This document shows positions 1-19,377 of a stretch of 64,000 bases of DNA, piece by piece. The notes below the pieces were generated by a model. That model was not told where the DNA came from. It saw only the letters and a list, made by a program, of their open reading frames with translations, and did not search any database. Source of the stretch: an uncultured Gammaproteobacteria bacterium (GTDB lineage: Bacteria; Patescibacteriota; Microgenomatia; Daviesbacterales; UBA10151); NCBI GenBank assembly GCA_964489875.1, contig CAZAZW010000002.1, positions 64,503 through 128,502 of the forward strand, in the 5' to 3' direction. Position 1 is the stretch's first letter. The number at the start of each line of letters is the position of its first letter. Both the position numbers and the translations under genes were made by a program.

Positions 1-2
1 GT

Positions 3-3000
3 TCACACACTGCCAGTGAAGTGAGTCAAACCGGCTACAGTGCATCTTCCTGGGGTGGAGATTGTAACAGTGACGGTACGATCACTTTGGCTTTGGGTGA
101 TAACAAAACCTGTACAATCACCAACGATGATACCCCGGCGTATCTGATTGTGATCAAACATGTTATCAAAGACAACGGCGGCAATGCAGTTGCTTCCGAT
201 TTCACTATGACTATCAATGATGTGATTGCTTCCGGAGGCAATTCTTTCCCCGGGCAAGCTGCACCCGGCACCAATAAAACACTCACTACCGTCGGCTCAT
301 ACAGCGTCACCGAAAGCGGGCCAACAGGTTATAATGCTAGCTTCTCCTCAGACTGTAACGGTTCGATCGCTTTGGGTCAAACCAAGACTTGTACTATTAC
401 CAATAATGATGTGGCGCCAACGATTCAACTGAATAAAGTGGTTATTAATAATAATGGAGGTAATGCTGGCTCCAATGACTTCGGTTTGACCATCGGTGGT
501 CAATCAGTTGACTCGGGCCAAACCCTAACTGTTAACGCTAATACCCCCCTTGCTATCAATGAAGCCGGACTTCCAGGTTATACCTTTGTCTCTATTACCG
601 GTGATGCCAAATGCCCGTCAGTCTTGGGCGGTTCAGTCACTTTAGATGAAGATGAAGATATTACCTGTACAATCACTAATAATGATGATGTCCCATCTTT
701 AACCTTGGTTAAGCAAGTAACTAATAATAATGGCGGTAATGCTCAAGCCACGGATTGGATTCTAACCGCCTCCGGCCCAACTGGATTTTCTGGCCCTGGC
801 CCCTCGGTTTCAAGTGATTCTTCTTTTAAAGCTGGCACTTACAATCTCTCGGAATCTGGTCCTTCCGGCTACAGCGCCAGTAGCTGGTTTTGTCAGGGCG
901 GCACTCAAGACGGAAACCACGTTACCCTTAATTTAGGAGAGAGCGCTACTTGTACCATCACCAATGATGACCAGTCGGCAAGTATTACTTTAATTAAAGA
1001 AGTAATTAATAATAACGGAGGTAATGCCGGCCCGAATGACTTTGGTATTTCTATCGGGGGACAGGTAGTCAATTCCGGAACTACACTAGATGTCAATTCC
1101 CATACTCCCATTGCTATTGATGAGGCAGGTTTAACGGGTTATAGTTTTGTCTCAATTACCGGCGATAATAAATGTCCGGCTACTTTGGGTGAAACAGTAG
1201 CCCTAAATGAGGGGGAGGATATTACCTGTACAATTACCAATGATGATCAACCGGCGCACCTCATTGTTATAAAGAAGGTGGTAAAAGACAACGGAGGAAC
1301 GGCAAATCCTGCTGACTTTACTATGACTATCAACGGGGTTGTCGTCCAAAGCGGAGGTAGTTCCTTCAATGGAGAAGATACTCCAGGTACCGTCAGAATA
1401 GTGGAACCCGGAACCTATAATGTCACTGAAAGCGGACCATCAGGTTATTCCAGCAACTTCTCGGCTGATTGTTCAGGGATAATTGCCCTGGGTGAAACTA
1501 AGACTTGTACCGTTACCAATAATGATATTGCTCCAACTTTGACTTTAATTAAATATTTACCTAATAATAATGGCGGAAGGGCTACTGAAAGTGACTTTAA
1601 AGTCTACGTTAATGGTCAACTTTCAAGTTGGGGCCAGCATACCCTCAGCGCAGGTCAATATACTATAAGCGAAGATACTTTGATCGGCTATGCGCCTTCC
1701 GCTTGGGGTACAGATTGTGATGTTGATGGGACAATTACTCTTAACCCCGGAGACAACAAGATTTGTACTATTACAAATGATGACGTGGAACCAACCCTGA
1801 CTTTGATAAAAAATCTTCCTAATAATAACGGAGGGACAGCTACCCAAGATGACTTTAATGTTTATATAGACGATGAGTCTGCAGTTTGGGGCCAAAATAC
1901 AGTTGACGCCGGGGATCTGACTGTTAGCGAAGACACTTTACCGGGTTATGAACCGTCAGTTTGGGGCGGTGATTGTGACGAGGATGGTGGAATCAGCTTA
2001 CTGCCTGGTGACAACAAGACTTGTGAGATTACCAATGATGACCAGCCAGCCCATCTCATTCTGGTTAAGAATCTACCAAACGATAATGGTGGTACCGCCA
2101 CCCAGGATGATTTCGATGTTTCTATTGACGAGCAAGAGGCGTTCTGGGGTGACAACGAAGTTAGTGCAGGTTCTCACACAGTCAACGAGAGCACGCTTGC
2201 CGGCTATACACCATCGGGATGGGGTCAAGACTGCGACGAAGATGGCAATGTGTCCCTTCTGCCAGGAGAGACTAAGACCTGTACAATCACAAATGATGAC
2301 GCTGCAGCTTTACTGGTAGTTAAGAAACAAGTCATTAATAACGATGGCGGAACCCTGGATGCCATTAACTTTACTCTTAATGTAACAGGCAATCAGCCTG
2401 ATCCTGCTTCTTTCCCGGGTTCTGAGTCCGGAACCATCGTGATCCTGGGCGCCGGAGCATATTCGGTTGATGAGACTGAGGTTCCTGGATATGAGAAGAG
2501 CTTAGGGGAAGATTGTGCCGGAACAATTGCTAATGGCGAAAGCAAAACCTGCATTATTACTAACGATGACCAGCCTGGTTCAATAAGCGGTATCAAGTGG
2601 AATGATGAGGATGGTAATGGCGAGCAGGATTGCGAGGATGATTCGGATGAGTTTTGTGAAACAGGTTTAGAAGGATGGACTATCTTTCTTGATAAGGATG
2701 ACAATGGAGTTCTGGATGAGGGTGAGGACTTTGAAGAAACTGATGAAGATGGATTTTATACTTTCACCGATTTGGACTCTGGCGCTTACCGGGTTTGTGA
2801 AGAGTTACAGGATGGCTGGGAGCAAACTTTCCCTGACAACGACGAGCTTAACAACTGCCATCTGGTGACTGTTTCCTCAGATGAGGATGTTGAAGACATT
2901 AATTTTGGCAATCAGGGCCGGGGTACTATTTCGGTTCATAAAAATGTTGACAATAATGGTGATGGTCAAGTGGATGAAGAAAACGCCACAAACTGGACTT

Positions 3001-4130
3001 GGGACATAGATGGACAGGGAGACTTTGCCACCGGTGACAGTGGCCAGGAGGTGGCAGCCGGTTCCTATGCTGTTTCGGAGGATCAAAAAGAAGGTTTCCA
3101 TGTAACTGATTTAGAGTGTAACGATGGAAATTTGTACGGTGCCTCTGAATCGGTTGATGTGACTTTAGAGGCAGGCCAGGATCTTTCTTGTACTTTTACC
3201 AACACCCGTGACAGCGGATCAATTACTATAGTTAAAGATATTGATAATAATGGGGATGGAGATGCCGATGATGTAGGAGATGTAAAGGGTGCTACTGACT
3301 GGACTTGGGACATTTTAGATGGCGATCAAGATAATCCGACTGGACAAACAAAAACTTTATCAACCGGGATATACACCATTAGCGAAGACCAAAAAGCAGG
3401 TCACCTGCTTTTGGGTTGGACTTGTTCCAATGAACAAACCGGCACCACTAATTCAATAAATATTAATGTCACAAGCGATTCGACAACCACCTGTACCTTC
3501 ACCAACCAATTGGTGCCGCCTGTTTTAACTTTAACAAAAGCAAATAATAGAACCGGAATTGATGTCGGAGCCGGATCAGATGTACTTTATACTTTAACAG
3601 TTACCTTAACCGGTAGTCCTCTTTCGAACGTTTCCTTAATTGATCTGCCTCCGGCTGGTTTTAAATACCGCTCAGGTTCTTGGACAGCCGTATCTTCCGA
3701 AAGGGGAGACTTAAAGCCTGAAATAACTACTGAGCCAACTTATGCCTCCCCCGGAACCTGGAGCTTAGGCGATATGGTAACCGGGGAAACTGTCACCCTG
3801 ACTTACATTGCAGATATTGATAACAGTACAGACCCGGGACTGTATAAAGATTTGGCCTGGTCTTCCGGTGAGGGTCAGACCTCAAGCACTGTTTTGGCTA
3901 ATGAAGATAGCGGATTCTTTGTCGGAACAGAAGTGAATGTGGTTGCTGGTAGCGGAGATTCAGCAGGAGTGAATGTTGTGCGGGAAGAGCGTGGTGAAGT
4001 TTTGGGGGTTTCTACTGAGCTTCCCCAAACAGGTATAAACACTCTCTGGTCAATTCTGGCTGTTCTTTTACTGGCAAGCGGTGCCGGACTTATTTTTGCC
4101 GGAATTAGTTTAAGGAGAAAATATGAATAA
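3..4130 (+). CDS. Giant cell-wall-anchored surface protein (adhesin-like), 5'-truncated at the window edge. It carries ~10 tandem ~90-aa SpaA/CnaB-like repeats, SdrD-B-like Ca-binding domains, a DUF11-like domain and a C-terminal LPQTG sortase signal.
   Basis: The reading frame is open from base 3 with no stop before the GTG at 21. The N-terminus begins mid-repeat (compare '..WGGDCDEDGGISLLPGDNKTCEITNDD') and has no signal peptide. The motif 'K(T/I)CTITNDD..LxLxK' recurs ~10 times at ~280-nt period, and 'G(T/S)Y.(V/L)(T/S)ESGP.GY' matches SpaA-isopeptide/CnaB-type domains. 'WNDEDGNGEQD..DKDDNGVLDEGED' is SdrD-B-like. The C-terminus is 'LPQTG' followed by a hydrophobic helix and 'RRKYE'. Confidence 0.8.
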   Translation, partial: SHTASEVSQTGYSASSWGGDCNSDGTITLALGDNKTCTITNDDTPAYLIVIKHVIKDNGGNAVASDFTMTINDVIASGGNSFPGQAAPGTNKTLTTVGSYSVTESGPTGYNASFSSDCNGSIALGQTKTCTITNNDVAPTIQLNKVVINNNGGNAGSNDFGLTIGGQSVDSGQTLTVNANTPLAINEAGLPGYTFVSITGDAKCPSVLGGSVTLDEDEDITCTITNNDDVPSLTLVKQVTNNNGGNAQATDWILTASGPTGFSGPGPSVSSDSSFKAGTYNLSESGPSGYSASSWFCQGGTQDGNHVTLNLGESATCTITNDDQSASITLIKEVINNNGGNAGPNDFGISIGGQVVNSGTTLDVNSHTPIAIDEAGLTGYSFVSITGDNKCPATLGETVALNEGEDITCTITNDDQPAHLIVIKKVVKDNGGTANPADFTMTINGVVVQSGGSSFNGEDTPGTVRIVEPGTYNVTESGPSGYSSNFSADCSGIIALGETKTCTVTNNDIAPTLTLIKYLPNNNGGRATESDFKVYVNGQLSSWGQHTLSAGQYTISEDTLIGYAPSAWGTDCDVDGTITLNPGDNKICTITNDDVEPTLTLIKNLPNNNGGTATQDDFNVYIDDESAVWGQNTVDAGDLTVSEDTLPGYEPSVWGGDCDEDGGISLLPGDNKTCEITNDDQPAHLILVKNLPNDNGGTATQDDFDVSIDEQEAFWGDNEVSAGSHTVNESTLAGYTPSGWGQDCDEDGNVSLLPGETKTCTITNDDAAALLVVKKQVINNDGGTLDAINFTLNVTGNQPDPASFPGSESGTIVILGAGAYSVDETEVPGYEKSLGEDCAGTIANGESKTCIITNDDQPGSISGIKWNDEDGNGEQDCEDDSDEFCETGLEGWTIFLDKDDNGVLDEGEDFEETDEDGFYTFTDLDSGAYRVCEELQDGWEQTFPDNDELNNCHLVTVSSDEDVEDINFGNQGRGTISVHKNVDNNGDGQVDEENATNWTWDIDGQGDFATGDSGQEVAAGSYAVSEDQKEGFHVTDLECNDGNLYGASESVDVTLEAGQDLSCTFTNTRDSGSITIVKDIDNNGDGDADDVGDVKGATDWTWDILDGDQDNPTGQTKTLSTGIYTISEDQKAGHLLLGWTCSNEQTGTTNSININVTSDSTTTCTFTNQLVPPVLTLTKANNRTGIDVGAGSDVLYTLTVTLTGSPLSNVSLIDLPPAGFKYRSGSWTAVSSERGDLKPEITTEPTYASPGTWSLGDMVTGETVTLTYIADIDNSTDPGLYKDLAWSSGEGQTSSTVLANEDSGFFVGTEVNVVAGSGDSAGVNVVREERGEVLGVSTELPQTGINTLWSILAVLLLASGAGLIFAGISLRRKYE

Positions 4131-5097
4131 TTTTAAGCTAATCACAACAAGTATACTTTTTGTGTTGATGTTTGTCTTAACAGGCCAAGTCTTTGCGGCG
4201 GATCTGTCTGTCAAAATTGAAACACCAAAAAGCTCAACCAGAGAAAACAGCTTTAAGATTGGTTTTGTGACCCTGGATATTCAGGGTAGATCAGTAACTG
4301 TGAAATGCTTGAAAAAAGGTCCTTCTGAAGGGAGCTTTACTCAATTCGGATCTGATTTTGTCTTTACGCCGGGAGGAAACAGCGGTAACTGTGAGGTGAC
4401 TTCCTCAATAATTTCCAGCCAAGGGACTTATCAATTTAAAGTTACTGCTCAAGCCGGAGCAGAGACAGCGGAGAGCTCAACTGTCTCTGTTTCATACGCA
4501 ACCGATTCTCCCAGCACACCGTCCTATTCTAAAGAGCAATTATCCTCTTGTGATTATAAAATTAAATTCAAAACTGCTGATGATGGCAGAACTGCTAAAG
4601 TGAAGATTTATAGATCTACCGAGACCAGCTTTACCGCTGATTCAGGGACAGAGATCGGCACTGTCAATATCGGCCCAAATCTGGAGGGAAGCTTTACTAA
4701 TTCTGTTCCGGATTGCAGCAAAACTTACTACTTTGCCATCAGGGCTTTTGATGATGCGGGTAATGGCTCTGGGGTAGCGAGTGATAGTGCAGTGACGGTA
4801 ATTACTACAACGACCACTGTGGCGGCATCCCCTACACCAGGTGGGGCTATTCCGGTAGCCGAGTCACAAGTCTCTGAAGGCTCTATTTTGGGAAGCACGG
4901 CGGCTGCCAGCGAAGAAGGGGTATTAGAAGAAGGGGTATTAGGAGAAGAAGCTACTCCCGGCTCAGAAATATCAGTTTCACCCACACCTCTGCCTCAGAC
5001 AGGACCCTTCACAAGGCTTTTTAGTTTAAGGAATTTAATCTATGCAGCTTTAGCAGGTTTGGTGATATACTTCCTCTATCGGCGGTCCCGCAAGTAA
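4123..5097 (+). CDS. LPXTG-anchored surface protein with signal peptide, Ig/FN3-like middle and a Thr/Ala-rich stalk.
   Basis: The N-terminus has signal peptide 'ILFVLMFVLTGQVFA'. The C-terminus is 'LPQTGPF' + TM helix + 'YRRSRK', the canonical sortase sorting signal. The start overlaps the upstream gene's stop (ATGA-type coupling). Confidence 0.75.
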   Translation: MNNFKLITTSILFVLMFVLTGQVFAADLSVKIETPKSSTRENSFKIGFVTLDIQGRSVTVKCLKKGPSEGSFTQFGSDFVFTPGGNSGNCEVTSSIISSQGTYQFKVTAQAGAETAESSTVSVSYATDSPSTPSYSKEQLSSCDYKIKFKTADDGRTAKVKIYRSTETSFTADSGTEIGTVNIGPNLEGSFTNSVPDCSKTYYFAIRAFDDAGNGSGVASDSAVTVITTTTTVAASPTPGGAIPVAESQVSEGSILGSTAAASEEGVLEEGVLGEEATPGSEISVSPTPLPQTGPFTRLFSLRNLIYAALAGLVIYFLYRRSRK

Positions 5098-5103
5098 ATC
5101 TTC

Positions 5104-5703
5104 ATGAAGAAATTATCACTTGTTCTGATAGCCTTAGGTTCTTTTAGTGTTATTTTGGCAGTTGCTATTTTTATAGCCATTTTCTATTCAGTAATTTCAG
5201 TGGAAGTAGGATATCAGATTAATCAGGTTTCTGGGCAGTCGGGAGTGAAAAAAGAAATAATCCCGCTTGATAAGGATTTTGGGGTAGTAATTCCTAAAAT
5301 TTCCGCCAATTCCAAAGTTATACCTAATGTGGATCCATTTAATGAGAAGGTATACCAAGAGGCCCTGACGCGTGGGGTGGCCCATGCCAAAGGAACAACC
5401 GTACCCGGAAAAGAAGGGAATGTTTTCTTATTTTCTCACTCTTCTGTAAATTTTTATGAGGCTAATCGATACAATTCAATTTTTTACCTTTTGGATAAAT
5501 TAACAGTTGGAGATGAAATAGACCTTTATTATTTAAACTCTAAATTTAAATATGTTGTTACTGAGAAAAAAGTGGTAGATGCTGCGGATGTAAAATATTT
5601 AGGCAACCTTGGATCAGGTAAAACTGTTACACTGATGACCTGTTGGCCGGCCGGGACCAGCTGGAAAAGACTGTTGGTAATAGGAACGTTAGCAGAAAAT
5701 TAA
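5104..5703 (+). CDS. Sortase (transpeptidase), membrane-anchored.
   Basis: N-terminal TM helix. Catalytic motifs are His 'GVAHAKGTTVPGKEGNVFLFSHS', Cys 'VTLMTCWP' (TLxTC) and the downstream Arg 'WKRLLVIG'. It lies immediately 3' of two LPQTG substrates. Confidence 0.85.
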   Translation: MKKLSLVLIALGSFSVILAVAIFIAIFYSVISVEVGYQINQVSGQSGVKKEIIPLDKDFGVVIPKISANSKVIPNVDPFNEKVYQEALTRGVAHAKGTTVPGKEGNVFLFSHSSVNFYEANRYNSIFYLLDKLTVGDEIDLYYLNSKFKYVVTEKKVVDAADVKYLGNLGSGKTVTLMTCWPAGTSWKRLLVIGTLAEN

Positions 5704-6503
5704 CCTTGAGTTGGAACTAATTCCTGAGTGAGAGCTATAGTAGCTGTGAATGCTAAGTTAATTGTACCAAGTTTTCCCATGATGCTTGCTCTATGATTAT
5801 TGGCTGTTTTTGGTGAGATAAAAAGCTGTTCTGATATTTCCTGGCTGGTTTTTCCTTGTACCAACAAAGCCAAAATTTCTGTCTCTCTTTCTGATAAGGA
5901 TTCACCTAGTGTAACCTTTTTAGCTGGAGGAAAAAATCTGCTTCTTTCCTCAGGCGGAACAGCAGCCAAAACCATGAAAATAGCTTCAACTCTATTTCCT
6001 GCGCCCAAATTATCTAAGATCGATGCTCGATGATTATCCGCAGTTTTAGGGCTGATGCAAAGTTTATCTCCTATTTCTGAACTTGTATACCCTGAAGCCA
6101 TCAAGCTAAAAACATCTTTCTCTCTTGGCCTAAATGCAACATTATTCCCACCAATTTGTAGGGTATGTACTGAATCTAACATGACTTTAAAAGCTAGGCT
6201 TGTTGCAACTCTTTCGTCTTCAGAAAACTTTTTGTTTATAGTAGCTTGGCGATCAGCGAGTTGATCTGGAGCGAGACCAAGTATCCATCTGATAGTAGTA
6301 GGATCCATTCCTTGAGCATTCAGATAAACAATCTTTTCTTCTAAGGGATCGAATCCTCCGTCAGGCAGCATTGTTTGTAAAAAGGCTGGCAGGCCTCTAT
6401 TATTTAAGTTTGGATTGGGTGGTCCTTCTTGATGTTGTAAATGTTCCATAAATTTAGCAATGTCTAATTTTGCAAGCCCATAGTTTAACATAACTTTTAT
6501 CAT
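5700..6503 (-). CDS. Transcriptional regulator with two tandem LuxR/GerE-type HTH domains.
   Basis: It has two copies of the LuxR C-terminal HTH signature: 'TSSEIGDKLCISPKTADNHRASILDNLG' and 'TSQEISEQLFISPKTANNHRASIMGKLG'. It converges on the sortase operon. Confidence 0.65.
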   Translation of the reverse strand: MIKVMLNYGLAKLDIAKFMEHLQHQEGPPNPNLNNRGLPAFLQTMLPDGGFDPLEEKIVYLNAQGMDPTTIRWILGLAPDQLADRQATINKKFSEDERVATSLAFKVMLDSVHTLQIGGNNVAFRPREKDVFSLMASGYTSSEIGDKLCISPKTADNHRASILDNLGAGNRVEAIFMVLAAVPPEERSRFFPPAKKVTLGESLSERETEILALLVQGKTSQEISEQLFISPKTANNHRASIMGKLGTINLAFTATIALTQELVPTQG

Positions 6504-6584: not shown

Positions 6585-7682
6585 TTGACAAGACATATTA
6601 GAGAAGACTATAACGTAGATGTTTCTATTTTAAATTTCCAAAAGAGAGGGGGTGAAAAAATATTGAATAAAGTAATAATGACAGTTTTTGGCATCTTCGT
6701 CTCTCTCTCTCTTCTATTTGTAACTCCAGCCTTAGCAGCAAAACCCGTTGATACTTGTCAGTATGTTGTGGACGGCAATATACCTTACGCACCTGGTCAC
6801 TATCTGGCTAGTCAGTTTTTAATGCCAGGATACGACGTATTTGGTTATAACTACCAAGCTCATATCTTTAACGGCAGTTTTGCTAATGCGTATCTAGGGA
6901 GACCGGGATCGGGATTACCGCCATATACGGGCGACGACACCGCTTATTTAGCGGAAAATCCTACTGCTGCGAGCCATTGGGCATGGCCGTTTAGGAATGT
7001 CCAGTTGCAGATGAAGTGGAATGACGCTTGGTTGGCTAATAAAGATTGCGGACCAGACGGTTTACTCGATAGACCTTCGCCCTATAAAGGTTCTGGAGCA
7101 TGGTTAACAAACCACGCAACAGGAACTTATGAAGGTAGCATATGGGATGCGACAGGTAACTATGTCATAAATGTAGAATATCTTGGGGTAGATTACCCAG
7201 AAGACTTAGTCCTGCTACAAAGCGGTAGTAGTATAACGGGCACTTCTCTAGAACTGGTTGGAGGTGGATCGCCATGGACAATAGATTCAGGTACCGTCAG
7301 TGGTAATTCAATAGAATTTGAAGGTTATTTTAACAGTAATCCTTCGATGAGAGTGCACTTTACAGGTAGTATTGCGGTTGATGGATCAATGAGCGGAAAT
7401 TGGGGAGATCTAGCACCGGGAACAAGAATAGGTATATGGGCCACAACATCCGGAGCGGCTATACATCCAATTTGTACAGTAAGCGATTTCGTCAAGATTA
7501 TTGCTCCACCTGCAACAGCAACAAAGGTAGCTGATGTTTGGTATACGGCTGATGAATCCGAAATCGGACAGGATATTTGGGGAGAGTTTGCCATAATCCA
7601 AGAAGAAGCCAGTGATCCTTGTAGTGAGTATGGAATCATTAACTACATGAGTCCTTTGAAAAAAGGTCTTGGAGGTTGGTAA
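6585..7682 (+). CDS. Secreted hypothetical protein; the true start is probably internal (TTG ~6663 or ATG 6678).
   Basis: Signal peptide 'MTVFGIFVSLSLLFVTPALAA' starts at the internal Met (6678). RBS-like 'agagagggggtg' lies at 6644-6655. I recognise no domain. Local GC looks higher than background. Confidence 0.55.
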   Translation: MTRHIREDYNVDVSILNFQKRGGEKILNKVIMTVFGIFVSLSLLFVTPALAAKPVDTCQYVVDGNIPYAPGHYLASQFLMPGYDVFGYNYQAHIFNGSFANAYLGRPGSGLPPYTGDDTAYLAENPTAASHWAWPFRNVQLQMKWNDAWLANKDCGPDGLLDRPSPYKGSGAWLTNHATGTYEGSIWDATGNYVINVEYLGVDYPEDLVLLQSGSSITGTSLELVGGGSPWTIDSGTVSGNSIEFEGYFNSNPSMRVHFTGSIAVDGSMSGNWGDLAPGTRIGIWATTSGAAIHPICTVSDFVKIIAPPATATKVADVWYTADESEIGQDIWGEFAIIQEEASDPCSEYGIINYMSPLKKGLGGW

Positions 7683-7866: not shown

Positions 7867-8463
7867 ATGTCGGGCGTTTTTGTATTACTATTCTTAATTA
7901 CTTTTGTCCTTTTGATTATCAGTTTGGTTAAGCCTGGGTTCCTAAATCGAATAATCAAGAGAGAACTTTCAAGGAAACAAAGTTCGCTTGGTATAGGTGC
8001 AATATTATTAATACTTTTTGTCTTAATTGGTATAACAGGTCCTAAAACAGAAATAAAAGGTGAAAGCACAGTTCGAGAAAGTTCTCCTAGTCCTACACTA
8101 GAACCCACTCCTACACCAACTTTAAGTCCTAGTCCTACTCCAAGCCCGACACCATCTTCGACGCCAACCCCAACGCCATCACCGTCGCCGACGCCTAGTC
8201 TTTTGCCTTTGCCTACGCCTACATCTATACCAACTCCAACAATAATTGCTACCCCTACACCAACTCCTCAGCCAAATAATTCCTCAACATCTAATAACTG
8301 TGATCCTTCTTACCCAGATGTTTGTATACCAATAGGTGCTGCTGATTACGATTGTGCAGGTGGTAGCGGTAATGGTCCAAATTATATTCAGGGTCCAATT
8401 CGTGTTCTTCCACCAGATCCTTACGATCTAGATCGTGATAATGATGGAATCGGCTGCGAATAA
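7867..8463 (+). CDS. Membrane-anchored protein with Pro/Thr-rich linker and C-terminal Excalibur (extracellular Ca-binding) domain.
   Basis: N-terminal TM 'VFVLLFLITFVLLIISLV'. Linker is a '(P[TS])n' repeat. The C-terminal 'DLDRDNDGIGCE' matches the Excalibur DxDxDGxxCE motif. Confidence 0.7.
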   Translation: MSGVFVLLFLITFVLLIISLVKPGFLNRIIKRELSRKQSSLGIGAILLILFVLIGITGPKTEIKGESTVRESSPSPTLEPTPTPTLSPSPTPSPTPSSTPTPTPSPSPTPSLLPLPTPTSIPTPTIIATPTPTPQPNNSSTSNNCDPSYPDVCIPIGAADYDCAGGSGNGPNYIQGPIRVLPPDPYDLDRDNDGIGCE

Positions 8464-10244: not shown

Positions 10245-10670
10245 TCAAATCCTGGGAAAATCTACTAAATTTTCTGTTATTGTTTTTGTGATAAGCTTGA
10301 AAATTTTATCTCTATCCTTTGGATTTGATTCAGAAACTAAACAGGCAAGCTTATAAAGATTAATGGGATCAATATTTATCCACTTTCCGTTTAAACTTAG
10401 AAAGGTAAGTATTGCCATGACAGCTATTCTCTTGTTGCCGTTTCTAAATGGATGATTTTTAATTAATGAATAAAATAGAATTGACGCTTGTTTCTCAAGA
10501 GTTGGGTAGAGAAGTTTTTGTTCAAAGGTTTGCTTTGGTGCTCCCAAAGAAGATTCTAGTAAACCATTATCTCTGGTTGAATAATCTGGTATGGGTTCCT
10601 GGTAAGTCATTAACTCTCTGGTAAGATCAAAACAAAGGAATTCAAAATCTTCGGGTTCTAACCATCTCAT
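10245..10670 (-). CDS. doc: Doc-family (Fic-fold) toxin of a type II toxin-antitoxin pair.
   Basis: 'HPFRNGNKRIAVMA' matches the Doc signature H-x-F-x-(D/N)-(A/G)-N-K-R. The size (141 aa) fits. Its start is translationally coupled (ATGA) to an upstream small ORF. Confidence 0.7.
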   Translation of the reverse strand: MRWLEPEDFEFLCFDLTRELMTYQEPIPDYSTRDNGLLESSLGAPKQTFEQKLLYPTLEKQASILFYSLIKNHPFRNGNKRIAVMAILTFLSLNGKWINIDPINLYKLACLVSESNPKDRDKIFKLITKTITENLVDFPRI

Positions 10671-10801
10671 GTAGAGGCAAGTTTTTTAAAGGTTAAGGCA
10701 TATTGTTTAACACCCTGCTCAACAGCTTTTTTGATTAAACTTGCTTTTTGCGGGTTTCGCTTTTGATATTTAGTAGGAGAGAACTTTTTCTTGTCATTCA
10801 T
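10667..10801 (-). CDS. Small basic ORF (44 aa) immediately upstream of and overlapping doc: candidate antitoxin. It is not in the supplied ORF track because it is under 60 aa.
   Basis: Manual reverse-complement translation gives 'MNDKKKFSPTKYQKRNPQKASLIKKAVEQGVKQYALTFKKLAST*'. Its TGA overlaps the doc ATG (ATGA). This position and size are typical of Phd/RHH-type antitoxins. Confidence 0.5.
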   Translation of the reverse strand: MNDKKKFSPTKYQKRNPQKASLIKKAVEQGVKQYALTFKKLAST

Positions 10802-10897
10802 GAGGATATTTTAACATAAAAGTAATTAGTTTAAAACTACAGGTAGGACATCTAGGTAAATTCGGTAGGTTGTTTTTTGGTGGTATAATGCAGCATT

Positions 10898-11503
10898 ATG
10901 AGTCTGGAGCACTTTAGTCAAACGCATCCGGCAAGTCCTGAACTTAGGGAAATAATGCTAAGAAAGAAGGAGAGGGGTAAAAACTCGGGGTCTCTGGTCA
11001 GTCTGTTGGCTTTCGATATGGCTCAGGCAGCAGGAAGTGGTATACAGGAATTAACCAGGGAGTTCAGTTATGCCAGGGTTGCCATGAATTTTGATCCTGA
11101 TTTATTTAAAAGAATGGATCCGAAAAATAGAAATGCTCTTATTCAACATCATGCAGCAGTTGTCTTTGGGGTTTCAGTACTTGGGATTGAGGATGCGTTG
11201 TGGACCAGGGTATTTGATAGAAGTGTGTGGTTTGTTCGCTATAACCTAGCCATGGCCGGTACACCATTTCGAGGTACAAATATGAGAGGAAAAGGTATTG
11301 AAGAGCTACCGGCAGAACAACATGCAACTATGATTTATCATGCCGGAAAAGACAAAACGCTCTCGGTTTTCTTTAATGGAGAGCTGAAAAGTTTGCCAAC
11401 CGGGCTCAGGTCTATTTTAGAGCAAGCTGGCCGGCTGCAACAAATCAGGTCAGGTGTTCTCCCGATATACTCTGAGCGTGCCCGTTTTCTGGTTGGTCAG
11501 TGA
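10898..11503 (+). CDS. Hypothetical protein (201 aa) with elevated local GC.
   Basis: Clean ORF with a 'tggtataat' -10 element upstream. I recognise no motif. It converges on and overlaps the Rad52-like gene by 7 nt. Confidence 0.5.
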   Translation: MSLEHFSQTHPASPELREIMLRKKERGKNSGSLVSLLAFDMAQAAGSGIQELTREFSYARVAMNFDPDLFKRMDPKNRNALIQHHAAVVFGVSVLGIEDALWTRVFDRSVWFVRYNLAMAGTPFRGTNMRGKGIEELPAEQHATMIYHAGKDKTLSVFFNGELKSLPTGLRSILEQAGRLQQIRSGVLPIYSERARFLVGQ

Positions 11504-12870: not shown

Positions 12871-13277
12871 TTAGTCATTGGTAACTATTTCTTTAGTTGC
12901 TTTCAGCAGATTGCAGGTAACCACTAAATATGATTCTGATGTCCAGGGGGTTAATGCCAAAAATGGCGACAATAATCCCGGGCGCGGTTCAACTTCCAGT
13001 GAAAATAATAGTAAACAAACTGTTGTTTCTCCAACCGGCGCAAAGAGTAAAATTCAACCGAAAACAGTAACTACCAAGGAAACTGAAACAGAAAATGAGG
13101 TTGAAAAGGATTAGGTCCTAAATTCTTTCAAGCCACGCCTTCTGCTACACCTGTGAGTACATCTTCTGCCACCGTCAGCTTCTCCGGAAGAAGAACCAAT
13201 TTCCTCTCATTTCCTTCGGGTATTTTTCGTGGTAAAATGGACTGTCACCCTTGCGAAGCAATGGGCAAGATTTTCTT

Positions 13278-15251
13278 ATGGCAAAATTTAAAATTGTTTC
13301 CGGTTTCAAGCCTACCGGGGATCAGCCTCAAGCGATTGATAAGCTTGTACGCGGCCTAAATCAAGGAAGGGAGCATCAGGTTTTGCTGGGAGTAACTGGG
13401 TCGGGTAAAACGTTCTCAATTTGTAATGTAATTGAGCGAGTGCAAAAACCGACCCTAATAATTGTACAAAATAAGACTTTAGCAGGACAGCTTGCACAAG
13501 AATTTAGATCTCTATTTCCTCAAAATGCTGTGGAATATTTTGTTTCCTATTATGATTATTATCAACCTGAGGCTTATATCCCGCAAAGTGACACTTATAT
13601 TGAAAAAGATGCCTCAATAAATGAGGAAATTGAAAAACTTCGGTTGGCCACAACCGCTTCGCTTTTGACCCGTAAAGATGTTGTGGTGGTAGCTTCGGTT
13701 TCCTGTATTTATAACTTAGGTTCCCCGATTGAATATGGCCAGGCAATTTTGGAAATAGGAAAAGGCATGAAAGCGGGAATGCAACAGGTGATGAAAATTT
13801 TGCAGAAAATGTATTACGCGCGAAATGATATTGATTTTAAGCGCGGGACTTATCGGGTACGCGGCGACACAATTGATATTTTTCCTTCATACATGGATCT
13901 CGGTTACAGGTTACAGTTTTTAGGTGATAGGGTAGAAAAGGTAGCGAAGCTGGAAGTGGTCACAGGCAACACTGAGGAAATGTTAGGGACACAAGTAATT
14001 TATCCGGCAAAGCACTACATTACTCCGGAACAAAGGGTGGTGCCCGGAATGAAGCAAATAGAGATAGATTTAGAGTCTAGAATCAAGAGTCTAGAGTCAA
14101 GTGGTAAACTGGTAGAGGCACAGAGACTTCAGCAAAGAACTCGTTATGATTTGGAGATGATCCGGCAATTCGGCTATTGTAACGGCATTGAGAATTACTC
14201 CCGTTATTTTGACGGCAGAAAGCCGGGTGAGCCGCCTTATACCCTGCTAAATTACTTTCCTAAGGACTTTTTAGTAATTATTGATGAATCACATATCACC
14301 ATTCCGCAAATCCGGGGGATGTATAACGGAGACAGATCAAGAAAGGAAACTTTGATTGACTTTGGGTTCAGGCTGCCTTCAGCTTTGGATAATAGACCTC
14401 TTCGGTTTGACGAATTCATGAGAAATGTTAATCAGGCAATCTATACTTCTGCTACTCCTGATGAATATGAATTATCTTTGGCAGGAAAAGATGGTGTGGC
14501 CGAACAATTGATCAGACCGACCGGAGTCTTAGATCCGGTGATTTCTGTCCGGCCAATCCAGGGGCAAATTAATGACTTAATGCGGGAAATTGAGAAGCGG
14601 GTAGTGGACCACGAAAGGGTGCTGGTAACAACTTTAACTAAGAGGATGGCTGAGGATCTGGCCGAGTATTTACATGATAAAGGAATTAAAGTCCATTATT
14701 TACATTCTGATGTTAAAACACTGGAACGGAGCGATATCCTGCAGTCTTTGCGGCTGGGGGAATATGATGTGATTGTGGGAATTAATTTGCTAAGGGAGGG
14801 GTTGGATTTGCCTGAAGTGTCTTTGGTAGCTATTTTAGATGCGGATAAGGAAGGGTTTTTACGTTCAAGAACATCCTTGATTCAGACCATGGGACGGGCT
14901 GCAAGGCATGTAAACGGCCAGGTAATTATGTATGCGGATATCGTGACCGGATCGATGAAAGCTGCCATAGATGAGGTGGAGCGAAGAAGAAAATACCAGG
15001 CAGAATATAACAAAAGACACAATATTACCCCCAGAAGTATTGAAAAGGCTTTGCGGGAGAGGCTGATTGAAAAAGTGGAGGAGCTGGAGGAGAGTTTAGG
15101 CAAAAAAGATCTGACAATAGAGGATATTCCGGCCTCTGAGCGGGAAAAAATGATCAAAAACCTGGAAGCCCAGATGAAACAAGCAGCAGAGCTTTGGGAT
15201 TTTGAAGAAGCAGCCAGAATCAGGGATCAGATAAAGGAGTTAAGTATTTAA
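13278..15251 (+). CDS. uvrB: Excinuclease ABC subunit B (UvrB).
   Basis: 'FKIVSGFKPTGDQPQAIDKL', Walker A 'GVTGSGKT', helicase motifs, a beta-hairpin region and the C-terminal UVR domain 'WDFEEAARIRDQIKEL'. The ORF-track start 13251 is probably 9 codons too long. Confidence 0.93.
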   Translation: MAKFKIVSGFKPTGDQPQAIDKLVRGLNQGREHQVLLGVTGSGKTFSICNVIERVQKPTLIIVQNKTLAGQLAQEFRSLFPQNAVEYFVSYYDYYQPEAYIPQSDTYIEKDASINEEIEKLRLATTASLLTRKDVVVVASVSCIYNLGSPIEYGQAILEIGKGMKAGMQQVMKILQKMYYARNDIDFKRGTYRVRGDTIDIFPSYMDLGYRLQFLGDRVEKVAKLEVVTGNTEEMLGTQVIYPAKHYITPEQRVVPGMKQIEIDLESRIKSLESSGKLVEAQRLQQRTRYDLEMIRQFGYCNGIENYSRYFDGRKPGEPPYTLLNYFPKDFLVIIDESHITIPQIRGMYNGDRSRKETLIDFGFRLPSALDNRPLRFDEFMRNVNQAIYTSATPDEYELSLAGKDGVAEQLIRPTGVLDPVISVRPIQGQINDLMREIEKRVVDHERVLVTTLTKRMAEDLAEYLHDKGIKVHYLHSDVKTLERSDILQSLRLGEYDVIVGINLLREGLDLPEVSLVAILDADKEGFLRSRTSLIQTMGRAARHVNGQVIMYADIVTGSMKAAIDEVERRRKYQAEYNKRHNITPRSIEKALRERLIEKVEELEESLGKKDLTIEDIPASEREKMIKNLEAQMKQAAELWDFEEAARIRDQIKELSI

Positions 15252-15262
15252 TTTGCTTAAGA

Positions 15263-15613
15263 TCACTCTCTGCTGGGGCAATCTGTAGCTGGAACTCCTG
15301 CGTCTAAGTAACGTTCTATTAATTCTTCTTGAACAGCAGGGTCCTGAATTATTAAGTTTTGTTTAAAAAGTTTCTGAGTGTGTAAGTAGTGATTACGAAC
15401 TCCTTTTGCTGATTGACGAAATTCCTCCATTGCTTTGCCTGTTAAGTGATGAATAGTCTCATTGTAAATGCGTCTCTCTTCTGGTGTCAGGGGTTTACCG
15501 GAAGCGTCTACACCACGGTGTAATAATTGATTAAGACGGGCAATGGCTCCTTGGCCTCCAGCTTGGCCTTCCGGTAAGGTATCTACAAATTTCCCTGCTT
15601 CTATTTTGTCCAT
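15263..15613 (-). CDS. Hypothetical protein (116 aa).
   Basis: Clean ORF between uvrB and uvrA. I recognise no motif. Confidence 0.45.
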   Translation of the reverse strand: MDKIEAGKFVDTLPEGQAGGQGAIARLNQLLHRGVDASGKPLTPEERRIYNETIHHLTGKAMEEFRQSAKGVRNHYLHTQKLFKQNLIIQDPAVQEELIERYLDAGVPATDCPSRE

Positions 15614-15792
15614 TTCAGTATATTATACCCTATAATTATATACTTTAATCGAAACTGAGTCAAATCTTGCAAAATAAGAACCTGCTCGCACTTCGGTTTG
15701 AAACTATTTTACCTCGTGCTCGCAGAACCTTGCCTTTTGACTTTGTCGGAAAGGTAGGTTAAAATAGATGCTTAATTTCGGGAAAACTTCGC

Positions 15793-18717
15793 ATGGCTGT
15801 TGATAAAATAATCATCAAAGGTGCCAGAGAGCACAATCTCAAAAATATTGACCTGGAAATTCCCAAGAATCAGTTGGTGGTTTTAACCGGCATTTCCGGC
15901 TCAGGTAAATCCTCTTTGGCTTTTGATACTCTTTATGCGGAAGGACAGCGTAGATACGTGGAATCCCTCTCTTCTTATGCCAGACAGTTTTTAGGGGTCA
16001 TGGACAAACCTGATGTGGATTTAATCGAAGGACTTTCTCCGGCTATTTCTATTGACCAAAAGGGAGTTTCTCACAACCCCAGGTCTACTGTTGGTACAAC
16101 CACAGAAGTTTATGATTACTTAAGGCTGCTTTTTGCCAGGGTTGGCCATCCTCATTGTCCGATTTGTGGTAGAGAAGTTTCAAAGATGTCAGTAGAACAA
16201 ATTGCGGAAAGAGTGACTAGTGACAAGAGTATAGAGTCTAGTAAAAAAGGGAAGAGAATAATGATATTGGCGCCGGTGGTGAAAGACAGGAAGGGAGAAT
16301 ATTCCCAGCTTTTTGAGGATTTTAGGAAAAAGGGATTTTCTAAAGTAAGGGTTGACGGACAGGTTAGAGATCTATCTGACGACCTGGTTTTAATTAAAAC
16401 TAACAAGCATACAATTGATGTAGTGGTAGATCGGTTGGTAATAGAGTCAAGAGTCAAGAGTCAAGAGTCAAGTGAATCGCAGTCTAGGCTCTCGACTCTA
16501 GCGACTAGACTCTTCCAAAGCATTGAGACAGCGCTAAAATTAGGTGAAGGTTCAGTGATTATATCTGAAGTATTAGATGCCTCTTTAGAATTTCCTCAAA
16601 ACCCTAAAAAAATGAAGGATCAACTCTACTCTGAAAGATTTGCTTGCCCGGTAGATAATATTTCTTTGCCGGAAATTGAACCGAGACTCCTGTCATTTAA
16701 CTCCCCTCACGGAGCTTGTCCGACTTGTTCCGGATTAGGAACACTGCTAGAAATAGATGAGACAGCTATTTTAAATCCCATTCTTTCTATTGCCGAAGGA
16801 GGGATTTTGCCCTGGAGTAAACTTGCCACCAGTGATACTTGGTTTACCAGGTTGATTGAATCGGTAGGCAAAGAAAATAAGTTTGATTTAAATACCAGAT
16901 TGGGTAATTTAACACCCGAAGCCAGGAAAATCCTACTTTTCGGAAGTGGCAAGGAGGAGTTTAAAGTAGAAGGAAGAAACAGACAGGGAAGGTGGACACA
17001 TTTCTATTCAAGCTTTCAAGGATTAGTTACCTATCTCAAGGAAAGGTATACTACCTCTGAATCGGATTTTGTGAAATCGGAAATTGAAAAGTATATGGTT
17101 AAAGAAATTTGTCCAAAATGCAAGGGTGCCAGATTGAAAGATGAAGCGCTGTCAATCACGATAGAAGGATCTAATATTGCGGAGGTGACCGGTCAATCAA
17201 TAGTTCAGACACATGAATGGATTAAAGATATTAAGTTGTCTGATCGGGAGACCCAAATCGCCACCCCGGTTGTGAAAGAAATTAAGGCCAGACTACAGTT
17301 TTTAATTGATGTTGGTTTGGATTATTTGACTTTGGATCGGGCTGCTATGACTTTGGCCGGGGGAGAATCACAACGGATAAGGCTTGCTTCCCAAATCGGC
17401 TCAGGACTTTCCGGAGTGTTATATGTTTTGGATGAACCATCCATTGGTTTACACCAGCGGGATAACAGTCGGCTGATTGAAACTTTAAAAAAGCTAAGGA
17501 ACTTAGGTAACACTGTGATTGTCAATGAACATGACGCTGAAACCATGGAAGCGGCAGACATATTGATAGAAATAGGTCCTGGAGCCGGTGAACACGGTGG
17601 TAAAGTTGTGTTTATGGGAACTCCTGATGAAATGAAAAAAAGCTCCACTTCTTTAACCGGTCAATACCTTTCAGGGAAGAAAAAAGTAAAGGTGAACAGT
17701 GAATTACAAAGGGAACCGGTTAATATGGGTTATCTTAAACTCTTGGGAGCAGCAGAACATAACCTAAAAAATATCAACATCTCTTTTCCTTTAGGCAAAT
17801 TTATTGCAGTTACCGGTGTTTCCGGCTCAGGTAAATCAACTTTAATTCATGACATTTTGTATAAAGCTCTAGCGCAAAAGATCTACCGGTCAAGGGAAAG
17901 AGCTGGTCTCTACAAAGGGATGGAGGGAATAGAATACGTTGATAAAGTTGTATTGGTGGACCAATCACCGATTGGCCGGACTCCCCGATCTAATCCGGCT
18001 ACTTATACCGGAGCGTTTACTTTTATTAGGGAATTATTTGCCCAGAGTCCGGAAGCTAAGATCAGGGGTTACGGCCCGGGCAGATTTTCTTTTAACGTCA
18101 AAGGCGGCAGGTGTGAAGTTTGTGAAGGTGAAGGCACTTTAAAAATTGAAATGCAATTTTTGCCGGATGTTTATGTGACCTGTGAATCATGCAATGGTGC
18201 CAGATACAACCGTGAGGCTTTGGAAATTCATTTTAAAGATAAAAATATTGCCGAGGTTTTAGATATGACGGTTGAGGAATCCTTAAAGTTTTTTGAAAAT
18301 ATTCCCCAAATCAAGAATAAACTGCAGGTTTTATTTGACGTTGGGTTAGGGTATATCAGGTTGGGTCAGCCGGCTCCTACTTTGTCCGGGGGTGAAGCTC
18401 AGAGGATTAAACTGTCTTCGGAGTTGTCCAAACGATCCACAGGACAAACAATGTATATCCTGGATGAGCCTACTACAGGATTGCACTTTGCTGATATTGA
18501 AAGGCTATTAACCATACTTAGAAAGCTGGTAAACTTTGGTAATACAGTGGTTATTATTGAACATAACCTGGATGTGATTAAAAATACTGACTGGATTATA
18601 GATTTAGGACCGGAAGGCGGAGATCAGGGTGGACAGGTAATAGCGGAAGGCACTCCGGCTCAAGTGGCTAAACTTAAGGGTTCTTATACTGGTCAGTATT
18701 TGGCCAAGATCATATGA
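15793..18717 (+). CDS. uvrA: Excinuclease ABC subunit A (UvrA).
   Basis: 'NLKNIDLEIPKNQLVVLTGISGSGKSSLAFDTLYAEGQRRYVESLS', two ABC modules, zinc-finger Cys clusters, and 'LSGGE.QRI.LAS' signatures in both halves. Confidence 0.95.
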   Translation: MAVDKIIIKGAREHNLKNIDLEIPKNQLVVLTGISGSGKSSLAFDTLYAEGQRRYVESLSSYARQFLGVMDKPDVDLIEGLSPAISIDQKGVSHNPRSTVGTTTEVYDYLRLLFARVGHPHCPICGREVSKMSVEQIAERVTSDKSIESSKKGKRIMILAPVVKDRKGEYSQLFEDFRKKGFSKVRVDGQVRDLSDDLVLIKTNKHTIDVVVDRLVIESRVKSQESSESQSRLSTLATRLFQSIETALKLGEGSVIISEVLDASLEFPQNPKKMKDQLYSERFACPVDNISLPEIEPRLLSFNSPHGACPTCSGLGTLLEIDETAILNPILSIAEGGILPWSKLATSDTWFTRLIESVGKENKFDLNTRLGNLTPEARKILLFGSGKEEFKVEGRNRQGRWTHFYSSFQGLVTYLKERYTTSESDFVKSEIEKYMVKEICPKCKGARLKDEALSITIEGSNIAEVTGQSIVQTHEWIKDIKLSDRETQIATPVVKEIKARLQFLIDVGLDYLTLDRAAMTLAGGESQRIRLASQIGSGLSGVLYVLDEPSIGLHQRDNSRLIETLKKLRNLGNTVIVNEHDAETMEAADILIEIGPGAGEHGGKVVFMGTPDEMKKSSTSLTGQYLSGKKKVKVNSELQREPVNMGYLKLLGAAEHNLKNINISFPLGKFIAVTGVSGSGKSTLIHDILYKALAQKIYRSRERAGLYKGMEGIEYVDKVVLVDQSPIGRTPRSNPATYTGAFTFIRELFAQSPEAKIRGYGPGRFSFNVKGGRCEVCEGEGTLKIEMQFLPDVYVTCESCNGARYNREALEIHFKDKNIAEVLDMTVEESLKFFENIPQIKNKLQVLFDVGLGYIRLGQPAPTLSGGEAQRIKLSSELSKRSTGQTMYILDEPTTGLHFADIERLLTILRKLVNFGNTVVIIEHNLDVIKNTDWIIDLGPEGGDQGGQVIAEGTPAQVAKLKGSYTGQYLAKII

Positions 18718-19358
18718 AAAAACGTAAATTTGATGCAGCCTTATTTGATGTTGATGGCACAATTTTAGATACCGGCGAATATATCTTTCAAGCTTACAAA
18801 TATACCCTGGCTCTTCACTTAAAAAAAGAAGTCACCTGGGAAGACGTTGTTCCGGTTTTAGGTTTGCCATTTGACCAGTGTTACCGTTTACTGACAAACC
18901 TGGAAGAAGTGGATTACTTAATGGAAACTCACCACCAGTATCAGACTAAAAATCCACAGTTAGTTAGACCCTATGAACATACTTTACAGGCTTTAGGATC
19001 TTTGAAAAAAGCCGGAGTGGCCATTGGAGCTGTTACCAGCCATAGCGGTGAACTGCTGGTCAGAAATTTAAAAAATGCCGGAATAGATAAATTCTTTAAA
19101 GTTATTGTTACCCCTTTTGAAGTTATAAATCCCAAACCGCATCCCGAATCGGTTTTTAAGGCTTTGGAGGTTCTTAAAGTCAAACCAAACAAGACGGTTT
19201 TTATCGGAGACAGTAAGGCTGATATAGAAGCCGGCAAGGGTGCAGGAGTTAAAACGATAGCAGCCTTATATGGATTTCATGGAGAAAAACTTCGGGAAAC
19301 AAAACCGGATTATGCAGTTTCGGATATCCAGGAAGTAGTTTCGATTATACTCGAGTGA
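18714..19358 (+). CDS. HAD-superfamily hydrolase (phosphoglycolate-phosphatase-like).
   Basis: Motif I 'ALFDVDGTILDT' and motif IV 'VFIGDSKADIEAG'. It is coupled to the uvrA stop (ATGA). Confidence 0.75.
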   Translation: MKKRKFDAALFDVDGTILDTGEYIFQAYKYTLALHLKKEVTWEDVVPVLGLPFDQCYRLLTNLEEVDYLMETHHQYQTKNPQLVRPYEHTLQALGSLKKAGVAIGAVTSHSGELLVRNLKNAGIDKFFKVIVTPFEVINPKPHPESVFKALEVLKVKPNKTVFIGDSKADIEAGKGAGVKTIAALYGFHGEKLRETKPDYAVSDIQEVVSIILE

Positions 19359-19377
19359 TAAACTTTGCTACAATATA

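Follow-up and report, generated by a model that had tools for sequence, protein, structure and literature searches.

Which proteins hold the surface adhesin of a bacterium of the Candidate Phyla Radiation (CPR) at its cell envelope, and how are they made? This question is raised by one end of a 64-kb window (contig CAZAZW010000002.1, positions 64,503 to 128,502; the window is the whole stretch of DNA analysed), in which a cassette of a giant repeat adhesin, a 324-aa protein termed ORF2 (second open reading frame, ORF) and a sortase was read within nucleotides 3–6503, the adhesin frame reaching the window edge (Table 1). CPR bacteria, or Patescibacteria, make up a sizeable part of bacterial diversity and seem to live in attachment to other cells; to our knowledge, little is known of their attachment machinery beyond type IV pili and the newly reported Pam pilus. 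Our answer, which we consider likely, is that the locus serves a CPR (Microgenomates) bacterium as an operon for sortase-dependent surface display, with ORF2 as a coupled partner. A sortase-anchored giant CnaB-repeat adhesin in a reduced-genome bacterium is, taken alone, ordinary; the advance is comparative and lies in a cassette found across the CPR, in a sortase clade that fits no class model, in a partner family for which no model exists and in the prevalence of a fused precursor that carries its sorting signal internally.

Table 1. Positions of the cassette genes, their parts and the convergent regulator in the window (nucleotides; TM, transmembrane).
Feature	Position	Strand	Basis
Giant surface adhesin, N-terminally truncated	3..4130	+	Open frame to the edge, 1,375 codons plus stop TAA 4128–4130; Pfam SpaA_2 x11, SpaA_4 x2, SdrD_B, SpaA
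SpaA_2/CnaB-like repeats, one partial (nt 3–131) and nine complete, 86–95 aa (aa 44–856)	3..2570	+	Segmentation, alignment, AlphaFold2 (AF2) model
SdrD_B-like acidic module (aa 857–968)	2571..2906	+	PF17210 30.8 bits (cutoff 29.7, marginal); PF17802 SpaA 29.8 bits
Two longer SpaA_4-like repeats (aa 969–1069, 1070–1170), ending CTFTN	2907..3512	+	PF24514 SpaA_4, two stretches; K/E/N positions kept
DUF11/TIGR01451-type domain, wall-proximal module	3534..3848	+	PF01345 28.5 bits (cutoff 24.6)
Adhesin sorting signal: VLG 3999–4007, LPQTG 4020–4034, hydrophobic stretch, RRKYE tail	3999..4127	+	TIGR01167 19.1 bits (cutoff 15.9)
Putative translational-coupling junction	4112..4130	+	Shine-Dalgarno AAGGAG 4112–4117, ORF2 ATG 4123, adhesin TAA 4128–4130; read from sequence
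ORF2, 324 aa, uncharacterised CPR family	4123..5097	+	No Pfam family; sub-threshold NCBIfam match only
ORF2 predicted signal peptide (aa 1–25)	4123..4197	+	
ORF2 tandem FN3/Ig ectodomain, four invariant Cys (aa 26–226)	4198..4800	+	AF2, Foldseek
ORF2 disordered linker with VLG motif	VLG 4936..4944	+	
ORF2 LPQTG, TM helix, RRSRK tail	LPQTG 4990..5004; TM 5032..5079	+	
Sortase, 199 aa	5104..5703	+	PF04203 E 9e-22, 77.6 bits (cutoff 26.6); TIGR01076 52.6 bits (cutoff 39.35)
Double GerE/LuxR-type regulator, 267 aa	5700..6503	-	PF00196 113.5 bits, E 3.4e-33, two stretches (nt ~5970–6137, ~5751–5903)

Gene order and fused precursors in CPR loci

For comparison, 80 loci were recovered by their sortases (L002–L081), all from CPR/Patescibacteria metagenome-assembled genomes (MAGs); two further sequences, L001 and L082, are near-identical relatives of the window. 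The best match among the 80, L002 from Ca. Daviesbacteria RIFCSPLOWO2_01_FULL_39_12 (70% sortase identity), displays the same adhesin-ORF2-sortase order. Searches with tblastn located an ORF2 homologue of 30–67% identity directly 5′ of the sortase in 67/80 loci, an adjacency that spans MAGs labelled Microgenomates, Moranbacteria and WWE3. In 62 of the 64 testable loci, an LPxTG motif followed by a TM or hydrophobic segment and a basic stretch lies 29–68 aa before the ORF2 domain, and the same loci share the VLG..LPxTG-TM-basic layout of the window adhesin. Signal and ORF2 domain stand in the same frame without an intervening stop in 52 of these 62, and ORF2 is a separate gene in ten. The split, two-gene form is found in the window lineage and in nine other Microgenomates-type loci. 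The preferred motif of the sortase clade is LPATG in most relatives and LPQTG in the window. A scan restricted to C-terminal LPXTG motifs found a substrate in 18 of the 80 loci, compared with 62 of 64 when internal signals were allowed; for annotation, scans of the C-terminus only miss most substrates of this clade. The initial annotation of the window had recognised the sortase/adhesin core, which stands, but missed ORF2 as the most conserved partner of the sortase, usually fused in frame to the adhesin.

As an example of the fused form, ORF calling and translation of L019 revealed a single ORF of 3,294 aa, ending 20 nt before the sortase gene and ordered as ...EVLGASTELPATG-TM-MKKAKK-LFMILFAIAGLSYVLNVKANA-FSLPQPVVRISEPKSP...SVLGEE...TM-KKKKA. 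Independent gene calls from databases added 136 new representatives of the ORF2 family, 90 of them long (up to 2,789 aa) and 46 separate, and an internal LPxTG-TM-basic signal followed by a signal-peptide-like helix was detected in 89 of the 90 long ones. Domains identified in the long fused proteins were VWA, SpaA, SpaA_2/4, SdrD_B and DUF11, with the VWA domain of the giant ORFs of L019 and L021 positioned near the N-terminus (aa ~445–642), as in pilus tip adhesins. The predicted topology of these precursors is self-consistent: the adhesin lies outside, the stop-transfer helix leads into a basic loop in the cytoplasm, and the signal-like helix ending in AxA returns the chain to the outside, where ORF2 is followed by a final TM helix. 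Viral envelope polyproteins likewise contain internal stop-transfer and signal sequences and are cleaved by signal peptidase. The fused CPR proteins resemble them in the stop-transfer segment and basic loop, in the signal-like helix ending in AxA that follows and in having both flanks extracytoplasmic, but differ in being bacterial and in that the first cut would be made by the sortase at LPxT|G; the window harbors a split, two-gene version.

Altogether, adhesin, ORF2 and sortase form an undescribed, CPR-wide three-part cassette built around an ordinary sortase/adhesin mechanism. In the searchable literature, CPR sortases are recorded, and we found there no account of their substrates, of the cassette or of natural internal LPXTG precursors. 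Beyond this, we tentatively propose, as a possibility short of a favoured conclusion, that the cassette is a CPR-specific three-component module whose ancestral and still prevalent form is a secretory polyprotein, cut by sortase and signal peptidase to yield a wall-linked adhesin and a membrane-tethered FN3 partner required for display or function at the host-cell interface. If true, a substrate fused in frame to its partner, with the sorting signal between the two, would represent an unusual mode of processing in bacteria.

It is unlikely that the locus holds only a canonical sortase/adhesin pair, with ORF2 as an unrelated operon neighbour and the fusions as incidental mergers. Though ORF2 belongs to no recognisable catalytic or binding family, has the generic fold of a tandem FN3 protein and is a separate gene in 10/62 loci and 46/136 representatives, its place beside the sortase is kept in 67/80 loci at ORF2 identities down to about 30%. 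Furthermore, the design of the junction, i.e., LPxTG-TM-basic and then a signal-like helix ending in AxA, is retained in all 52 fused loci and in 89/90 long proteins, and the VLG motif is common to adhesin and ORF2.

ORF2 and the sortase

An N-terminal peptide of ORF2 reads ADLSVKIETPKS. AF2 modelled its ectodomain as two FN3/Ig sandwiches (block pLDDT 83–96), with a short conserved N-terminal strand at aa 28–32, and Foldseek matched it to tandem FN3 proteins, including RbmA of V. cholerae (4kkp, 4be5; E about 1e-6). At 50% identity the family falls into 735 clusters, of which 588 have E <=1e-10, and it is covered by no Pfam or NCBIfam model. Invariant throughout are the four Cys, P35, P130, S216, the Ala of the signal-peptidase site and the VLG motif of the linker, and 25 close homologues additionally share an invariant E-x-P-K-[ST]-P near the mature N-terminus. 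K36, K137 and K200 are invariant among the close homologues as well; across the 67 locus homologues they occur in 18, 30 and 22 sequences, respectively, and no Lys is conserved family-wide.

In regard to its C-terminus, ORF2 had been described as a second LPQTG protein. LPQTG, TM helix and RRSRK tail are indeed present in the window, but an LPxTG motif of ORF2 is confined to sequences of at least 92% identity, namely the window, L001/L082 and P0094 (92%), with LPGRG in P0097 and no LPxTG in any of the 67 locus homologues or the other close homologues. As far as sequences can tell, ORF2 is, as a family, a C-terminally TM-anchored protein, and the LPQTG of the window is a recent acquisition. Gene conversion between the two LPQTG signals of the window was considered as a source and rejected, as no DNA similarity extends beyond the motif.

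The VLG motif takes different positions in the two proteins. In the adhesins it lies 2–8 aa before LPxTG (EVLGVSTELPQTG in the window, VLGAS..LPATG in most loci). In the ORF2 family it appears as [GS]VLGE, 20–35 aa before the C-terminal TM helix, in 57–65 of the 67 sequences, despite the missing LPxTG.

PamR, the proposed membrane tether of the Pam pilus, is reported to be a 32.8-kDa protein whose tandem FnIII domains resemble RbmA and which also possesses a C-terminal TM helix and one additional strand at the N-terminus; the Pam system is described as one of donor-strand exchange (bioRxiv 10.64898/2026.03.03.709456). Compared by description only, ORF2 is like PamR in architecture, size (~33 kDa) and CPR origin. 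ORF2 might accordingly be a non-covalent tether or scaffold of this kind, docking the base of the adhesin or the sortase by beta-strand complementation through its N-terminal or VLG strand, which we consider distinctly unlikely. The tandem FN3 ectodomain, the position of RbmA among the top Foldseek matches, the C-terminal TM helix and the N-terminal strand fit such a role, but the likeness may be that of a generic FN3 tandem, and in the main text and supplement of the Pam paper the word sortase appears a single time, in the introduction. Among the annotated genes of the window, none was recognised as pam-like.

The sortase itself was correctly predicted in the initial annotation, and its active-site Cys is present. 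By eye, a hydrophobic segment (LSLVLIALGSFSVILAVAIFIAIFY, about aa 4–28) can be read as its N-terminal membrane anchor. The catalytic residues are H112 (5437–5439), C180 (5641–5643) within T-L-M-T-C-W-P-A-G-T and R189 (5668–5670); H112, T176-L-M-T-C180 and R189 align with the catalytic residues of SrtD (4d70) and of class C structures including 4g1j, and the three residues together with the extended signature are invariant in 81/81 sortase sequences. On inspection, a DPF at aa 76–78 aligns with the usual pre-beta1 segment. Scores against the NCBIfam class models, in bits versus cutoff, were 61.9/160 for class C, 47.1/165 for class D, 35.3/160 for class E, 28.5/158 for class GN and 16.7/166 for class F. 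Judged by these models, the sortase clade is unclassified. Class C sortases typically possess a C-terminal TM helix and an N-terminal lid; the window sortase ends 10 aa after R189 and thus has no C-terminal TM helix of the class C type. The class GN or marine sortase (TIGR03784) is, as we take it, paired with an adjacent VWA-domain target, and the window resembles such cassettes in that the sortase lies beside an apparently single large substrate. In contrast, its match to TIGR03784 is weak, and we know of no ORF2-like partner or fused internal-signal architecture as a feature of the class GN system. Sortases are frequent in CPR (PMC6744442, PMC7143001), and one sortase family, near-ubiquitous in Microgenomates, occurs in over half of the CPR genomes (PMC6744442).

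One related NCBI record, P0171 from Ca. Daviesbacteria (287 aa), is named a class E sortase and combines 75% identity to the first half of ORF2 with a Pfam sortase domain; the record represents either a fusion of ORF2 with a sortase or an artefact, due to a frameshift or to the assembly. The class E label of this record is not supported for the window sortase by the class E model.

Like sortase-assembled pilus islands, the locus is a small cluster in which a large adhesin and a second, smaller LPXTG protein are accompanied by a sortase of their own; class C as the top-scoring class and the VWA domains of relatives are further common points. By analogy, the sortase could join the LPXT carboxyl of the adhesin to ORF2, the acceptor amine being that of a Lys or of the N-terminus exposed once the signal peptide is removed, so that ORF2 would be a basal subunit anchoring the adhesin to the membrane or, in the window lineage and by way of the LPQTG of ORF2, to the wall. 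We rate this as very unlikely. The best NCBIfam and PDB similarities of the sortase are to classes C and D, the close ORF2 homologues carry the invariant E-x-P-K-[ST]-P, the fused relatives have a VWA tip-adhesin-like N-terminal region, and the ORF2 of the window carries an LPQTG, as would be expected of a basal pilin. However, the family-wide conserved Lys is missing from ORF2, its fold matches are FN3 proteins and not pilins, and the sortase has no C-terminal TM helix and remains far below the class C cutoff. In comparison with pilus islands, the cassette further has neither a pilin-motif Lys in ORF2 nor a major pilin gene, and ORF2 is TM-anchored in almost all members of its family. As a Lys acceptor or basal pilin, ORF2 is disfavoured, since K36, K137 and K200 are not kept across the 67-member set.

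Repeats and extent of the adhesin

The description of the locus as a sortase locus with a giant, edge-truncated LPXTG repeat adhesin holds, the frame being open to the window edge over 1,375 codons. SpaA_2 matched in 11 stretches (E 1.5e-108), SpaA_4 in two and SdrD_B once. Splitting the protein at its recurrent C-x-[IVF]-T-N motif gave one partial and nine full repeats ending CT[IV]TN[DN]D, in line with the predicted ten or so SpaA/CnaB-like repeats of about 90 aa, and two longer repeats besides. The short repeats follow the pattern L-x-[LV]-x-K ... NNNGG ... [ST]-E ... G-Y ... C ... C-T-[IV]-T-N-[DN]-D. In an alignment including the two longer repeats, K9, G17, G41, E61, G66, C87, T90 and N91 are invariant across 11/11 complete repeats, which confirms the Lys/Asn/Glu triad. 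In a CnaB-type intramolecular isopeptide bond, the Lys stands in the first strand and the Asn in the last, with the Glu between them. The AF2 model of one repeat (pLDDT 95.6) is all-beta and places K9, E61 and N91 in strands 3–12, 55–62 and 84–92, respectively. Its best Foldseek matches in the PDB are weak and come without exception from isopeptide-bonded pilin or adhesin domains (Spy0128-type T antigens, Cpa, GBS52, PitA and CnaB2), and no PDB sequence matched a profile of the 11 repeats significantly (best E 0.03). Predicted Lys-Asn isopeptide locks in each repeat are well supported by the conservation of the triad, and a disulfide in each repeat is suggested by a second conserved Cys. A family of CPR thiol-disulfide oxidoreductases has been compared to MdbA and is often encoded beside VKOR (PMC6744442); it could be the source of these disulfides.

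Concerning the remaining domains, the predicted SdrD-B-like modules came down to one, with a marginal PF17210 match. Its DxDxDG-type loops NDEDGNGEQD, DKDDNGVLDEGE and TDEDGFY, read by eye, are putatively Ca2+-binding. DUF11 and LPQTG, both predicted, were found; the former passes its cutoff only on a separate scan of the C-terminal 276 aa, and TIGR01451 on the full adhesin remains at 21.5 bits, below its cutoff of 24. The LPQTG peptide reads VSTELPQTGINT and the C-terminus LPQTG-INTLWSILAVLLLASGAGLIFAGISL-RRKYE, the tail being ...RGEVLGVSTELPQTG-hydrophobic-RRKYE. Thus composed, the adhesin resembles Gram-positive CnaB/SpaA/SdrD-type, MSCRAMM-like adhesins such as Cna, SdrD and FbaB in its LPXTG-hydrophobic-basic signal, its CnaB-like array with the Lys/Glu/Asn triad, its SdrD_B-like module and the adjoining His-Cys-Arg sortase with TLxTC. 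Differences concern the host, which is a CPR bacterium, the SpaA_2/SpaA_4 repeats, which have an extra conserved Cys pair and no close solved structure, the sortase, which falls outside the NCBIfam classes A–F/GN, and the obligatory third component ORF2.

The L002 ortholog is full length at 2,474 aa, with LPATG, a hydrophobic N-terminus that appears signal-peptide-like by eye, no VWA match and ~600 N-terminal residues without a family. The window adhesin is colinear with it at about 40% aa identity, sorting signal intact; residues 1–43 align near residue 690 of L002, and L002 residue 1080 is where the best colinear alignment begins. Probably ~700–1,100 residues are missing 5′ of the window and the full adhesin measures ~2,000–2,450 aa, an estimate derived from the length of this closest ortholog. 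Two exact-match scans of a metagenome collection recovered no upstream adhesin sequence, and a look-up of the exact ORF2 protein gave no match; the sequence of L001 (a 4-kb Logan contig) begins within ORF2, that of L082 within the adhesin. When the adhesin C-terminus was used as the query of a word-indexed homology search, no match exceeded 903 aa or 52% identity, and the known orthologs were missed.

Repeat-number polymorphism, for which a check had been suggested, was not seen against L082, with which the adhesin is colinear over 1,053 aa (73% aa identity) at an unchanged repeat number. L002 has ~400 extra residues after the shared repeat, which we do not count as such polymorphism, since about 40% identity represents between-species divergence. 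At the DNA level, a periodicity of 258–285 nt was found with copies only 60–76% identical, which makes repeat-number changes by slippage unlikely, and Tandem Repeats Finder reported no array in the adhesin DNA. The DNA repeats had also been held responsible for antisense ORFs; the periodicity is real, but the claim is weak, as the shadow ORFs of the adhesin (5 in 4.1 kb; 1.21 versus 0.52 per kb elsewhere) are out of register with the repeats. That the adhesin is a decaying or misassembled repeat ORF can be dismissed as highly improbable, for although it is cut by the window edge and short-read assemblies break here (as in L001 and L082), its frame is uninterrupted over 4,128 nt, all repeats keep their invariant residues, it is colinear with both orthologs with an intact sorting signal, and the repeats are too diverged to collapse in assembly.

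Proposed mechanism and genomic setting

Based on these features, we suggest that the adhesin would be exported via Sec, a signal-peptide-like segment being seen only in its ortholog, and that its LPQTG-hydrophobic-RRKYE signal would retain it in the membrane. The sortase with its His-Cys-Arg triad, itself anchored in the membrane and encoded 1 kb further downstream, would then cut it between Thr and Gly and, following the established sortase mechanism, pass it to an amine of a cell-wall precursor. The resulting stalk of at least 12 CnaB/SpaA-like beta-sandwich domains, each probably locked by an isopeptide bond (with Glu as the catalyst) and a disulfide, and including one putative Ca2+-binding module, may hold a putative N-terminal binding region, outside the window, away from the cell, toward a host or partner cell. 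ORF2 would be made in fixed proportion to the adhesin by translational coupling, as judged from the Shine-Dalgarno sequence within the codons of the adhesin tail and the 8-nt gene overlap, and would stay at the membrane/wall interface as an obligatory partner. In the fused relatives, cleavage of one precursor by both sortase and signal peptidase would give rise to two surface proteins; the window lineage would have split this precursor into two genes, ORF2 secondarily gaining its own LPQTG.

The AAGGAG is perfect, lies 5 nt 5′ of the ORF2 start and falls within the Arg-Arg-Lys codons of the adhesin tail. The overlap of adhesin and ORF2 spans 4123–4130, and a gap of 6 nt separates ORF2 from the sortase, so that the start/stop overlap once assigned to these two has to be corrected; the real overlaps are those of adhesin with ORF2 and of sortase with the regulator. 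The packing of the three plus-strand genes is tight enough to support their prediction as one operon. Co-transcription of the whole unit, as initially assumed, fits these three but not the regulator, which is excluded because it lies on the opposite strand. Promoter and terminator scans of the locus performed no better than on shuffled sequence.

Several points weigh against a surface-display operon with ORF2 as its coupled partner. The cassette is known here from genes alone, and the role suggested for ORF2 follows from gene order and fusion only. The LPQTG is missing from the 67%-identical ORF2 ortholog of L002, the sortase scores below every NCBIfam class cutoff, the Foldseek matches of the repeat are weak (E about 1e-3, TM-scores 0.45–0.68), and the N-terminus and signal peptide of the adhesin lie off the window. 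Finally, the annotated parts of the window showed no genes for peptidoglycan synthesis, so that wall anchoring rests on general knowledge of CPR. The locus offers a concrete candidate for CPR attachment, with a signature sortase clade, its preferred motif, a giant CnaB-repeat adhesin and an unmodelled partner family.

The convergent double-LuxR regulator was predicted correctly, with two GerE domains (aa ~123–178 and ~201–251) on the minus strand after 120 N-terminal aa without a family match. The two domains could make it a single-chain pseudo-dimer. Its stop codon overlaps that of the sortase by 4 nt. Only the near-identical relatives L001 and L082 retain the regulator, and the other 80 loci lack it; for this reason it was rejected as a member of the system, and it is a lineage-specific neighbour without evidence of control over the locus.

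The assignment of the host to a CPR (Microgenomates/Daviesbacteria-like) genome is supported. Many MAG records with a CPR-type cassette (L005, L009, L018, L030 and others) are titled uncultured Gammaproteobacteria, Bdellovibrionales or Pseudomonadales, which given their gene content are probably taxonomic mislabels in automated third-party annotation (TPA) assemblies. Apart from the cassette, the window carries housekeeping genes, namely uvrABC, pentose-phosphate enzymes, BipA, a MacB-type ABC system and tRNAs, and the whole 64 kb contains two credible sorting signals only, those of adhesin and ORF2.

Among the related loci, five of the more distant ones (L062, L067, L078, L079 and L081 (about 10,450–11,480); 32–49% identity) encode a protein of 170–270 aa directly 3′ of the sortase, with a C-terminal LPATG, LPETG or VPETG, the last in three WWE3 loci; this suggests a second, different type of cassette. 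In the window, the ORF at 6585–7682 (+) encodes 365 aa and belongs to no Pfam or NCBIfam family; a clear signal peptide (MTVFGIFVSLSLLFVTPALA|AKP) comes after an internal Met. A homologue of 36% identity was found in L071 and a short match just 3′ of the L002 sortase. A membrane-anchored protein encoded further downstream, at 7867–8463 (+), has a long linker rich in Pro, Thr and Ser; its C-terminal DLDRDNDGIGCE motif contains a Cys and gave a weak Excalibur-like Ca-binding match (E 0.008, below cutoff). A gene string at 13251–22552 (+) comprises uvrB, uvrA, a HAD hydrolase, a 634-aa transglutaminase-like protein and uvrC, with the transglutaminase-core protein thus inserted between uvrA and uvrC. 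ORFs of sizes like those of this string follow the sortase locus in L002, which suggests conserved synteny.

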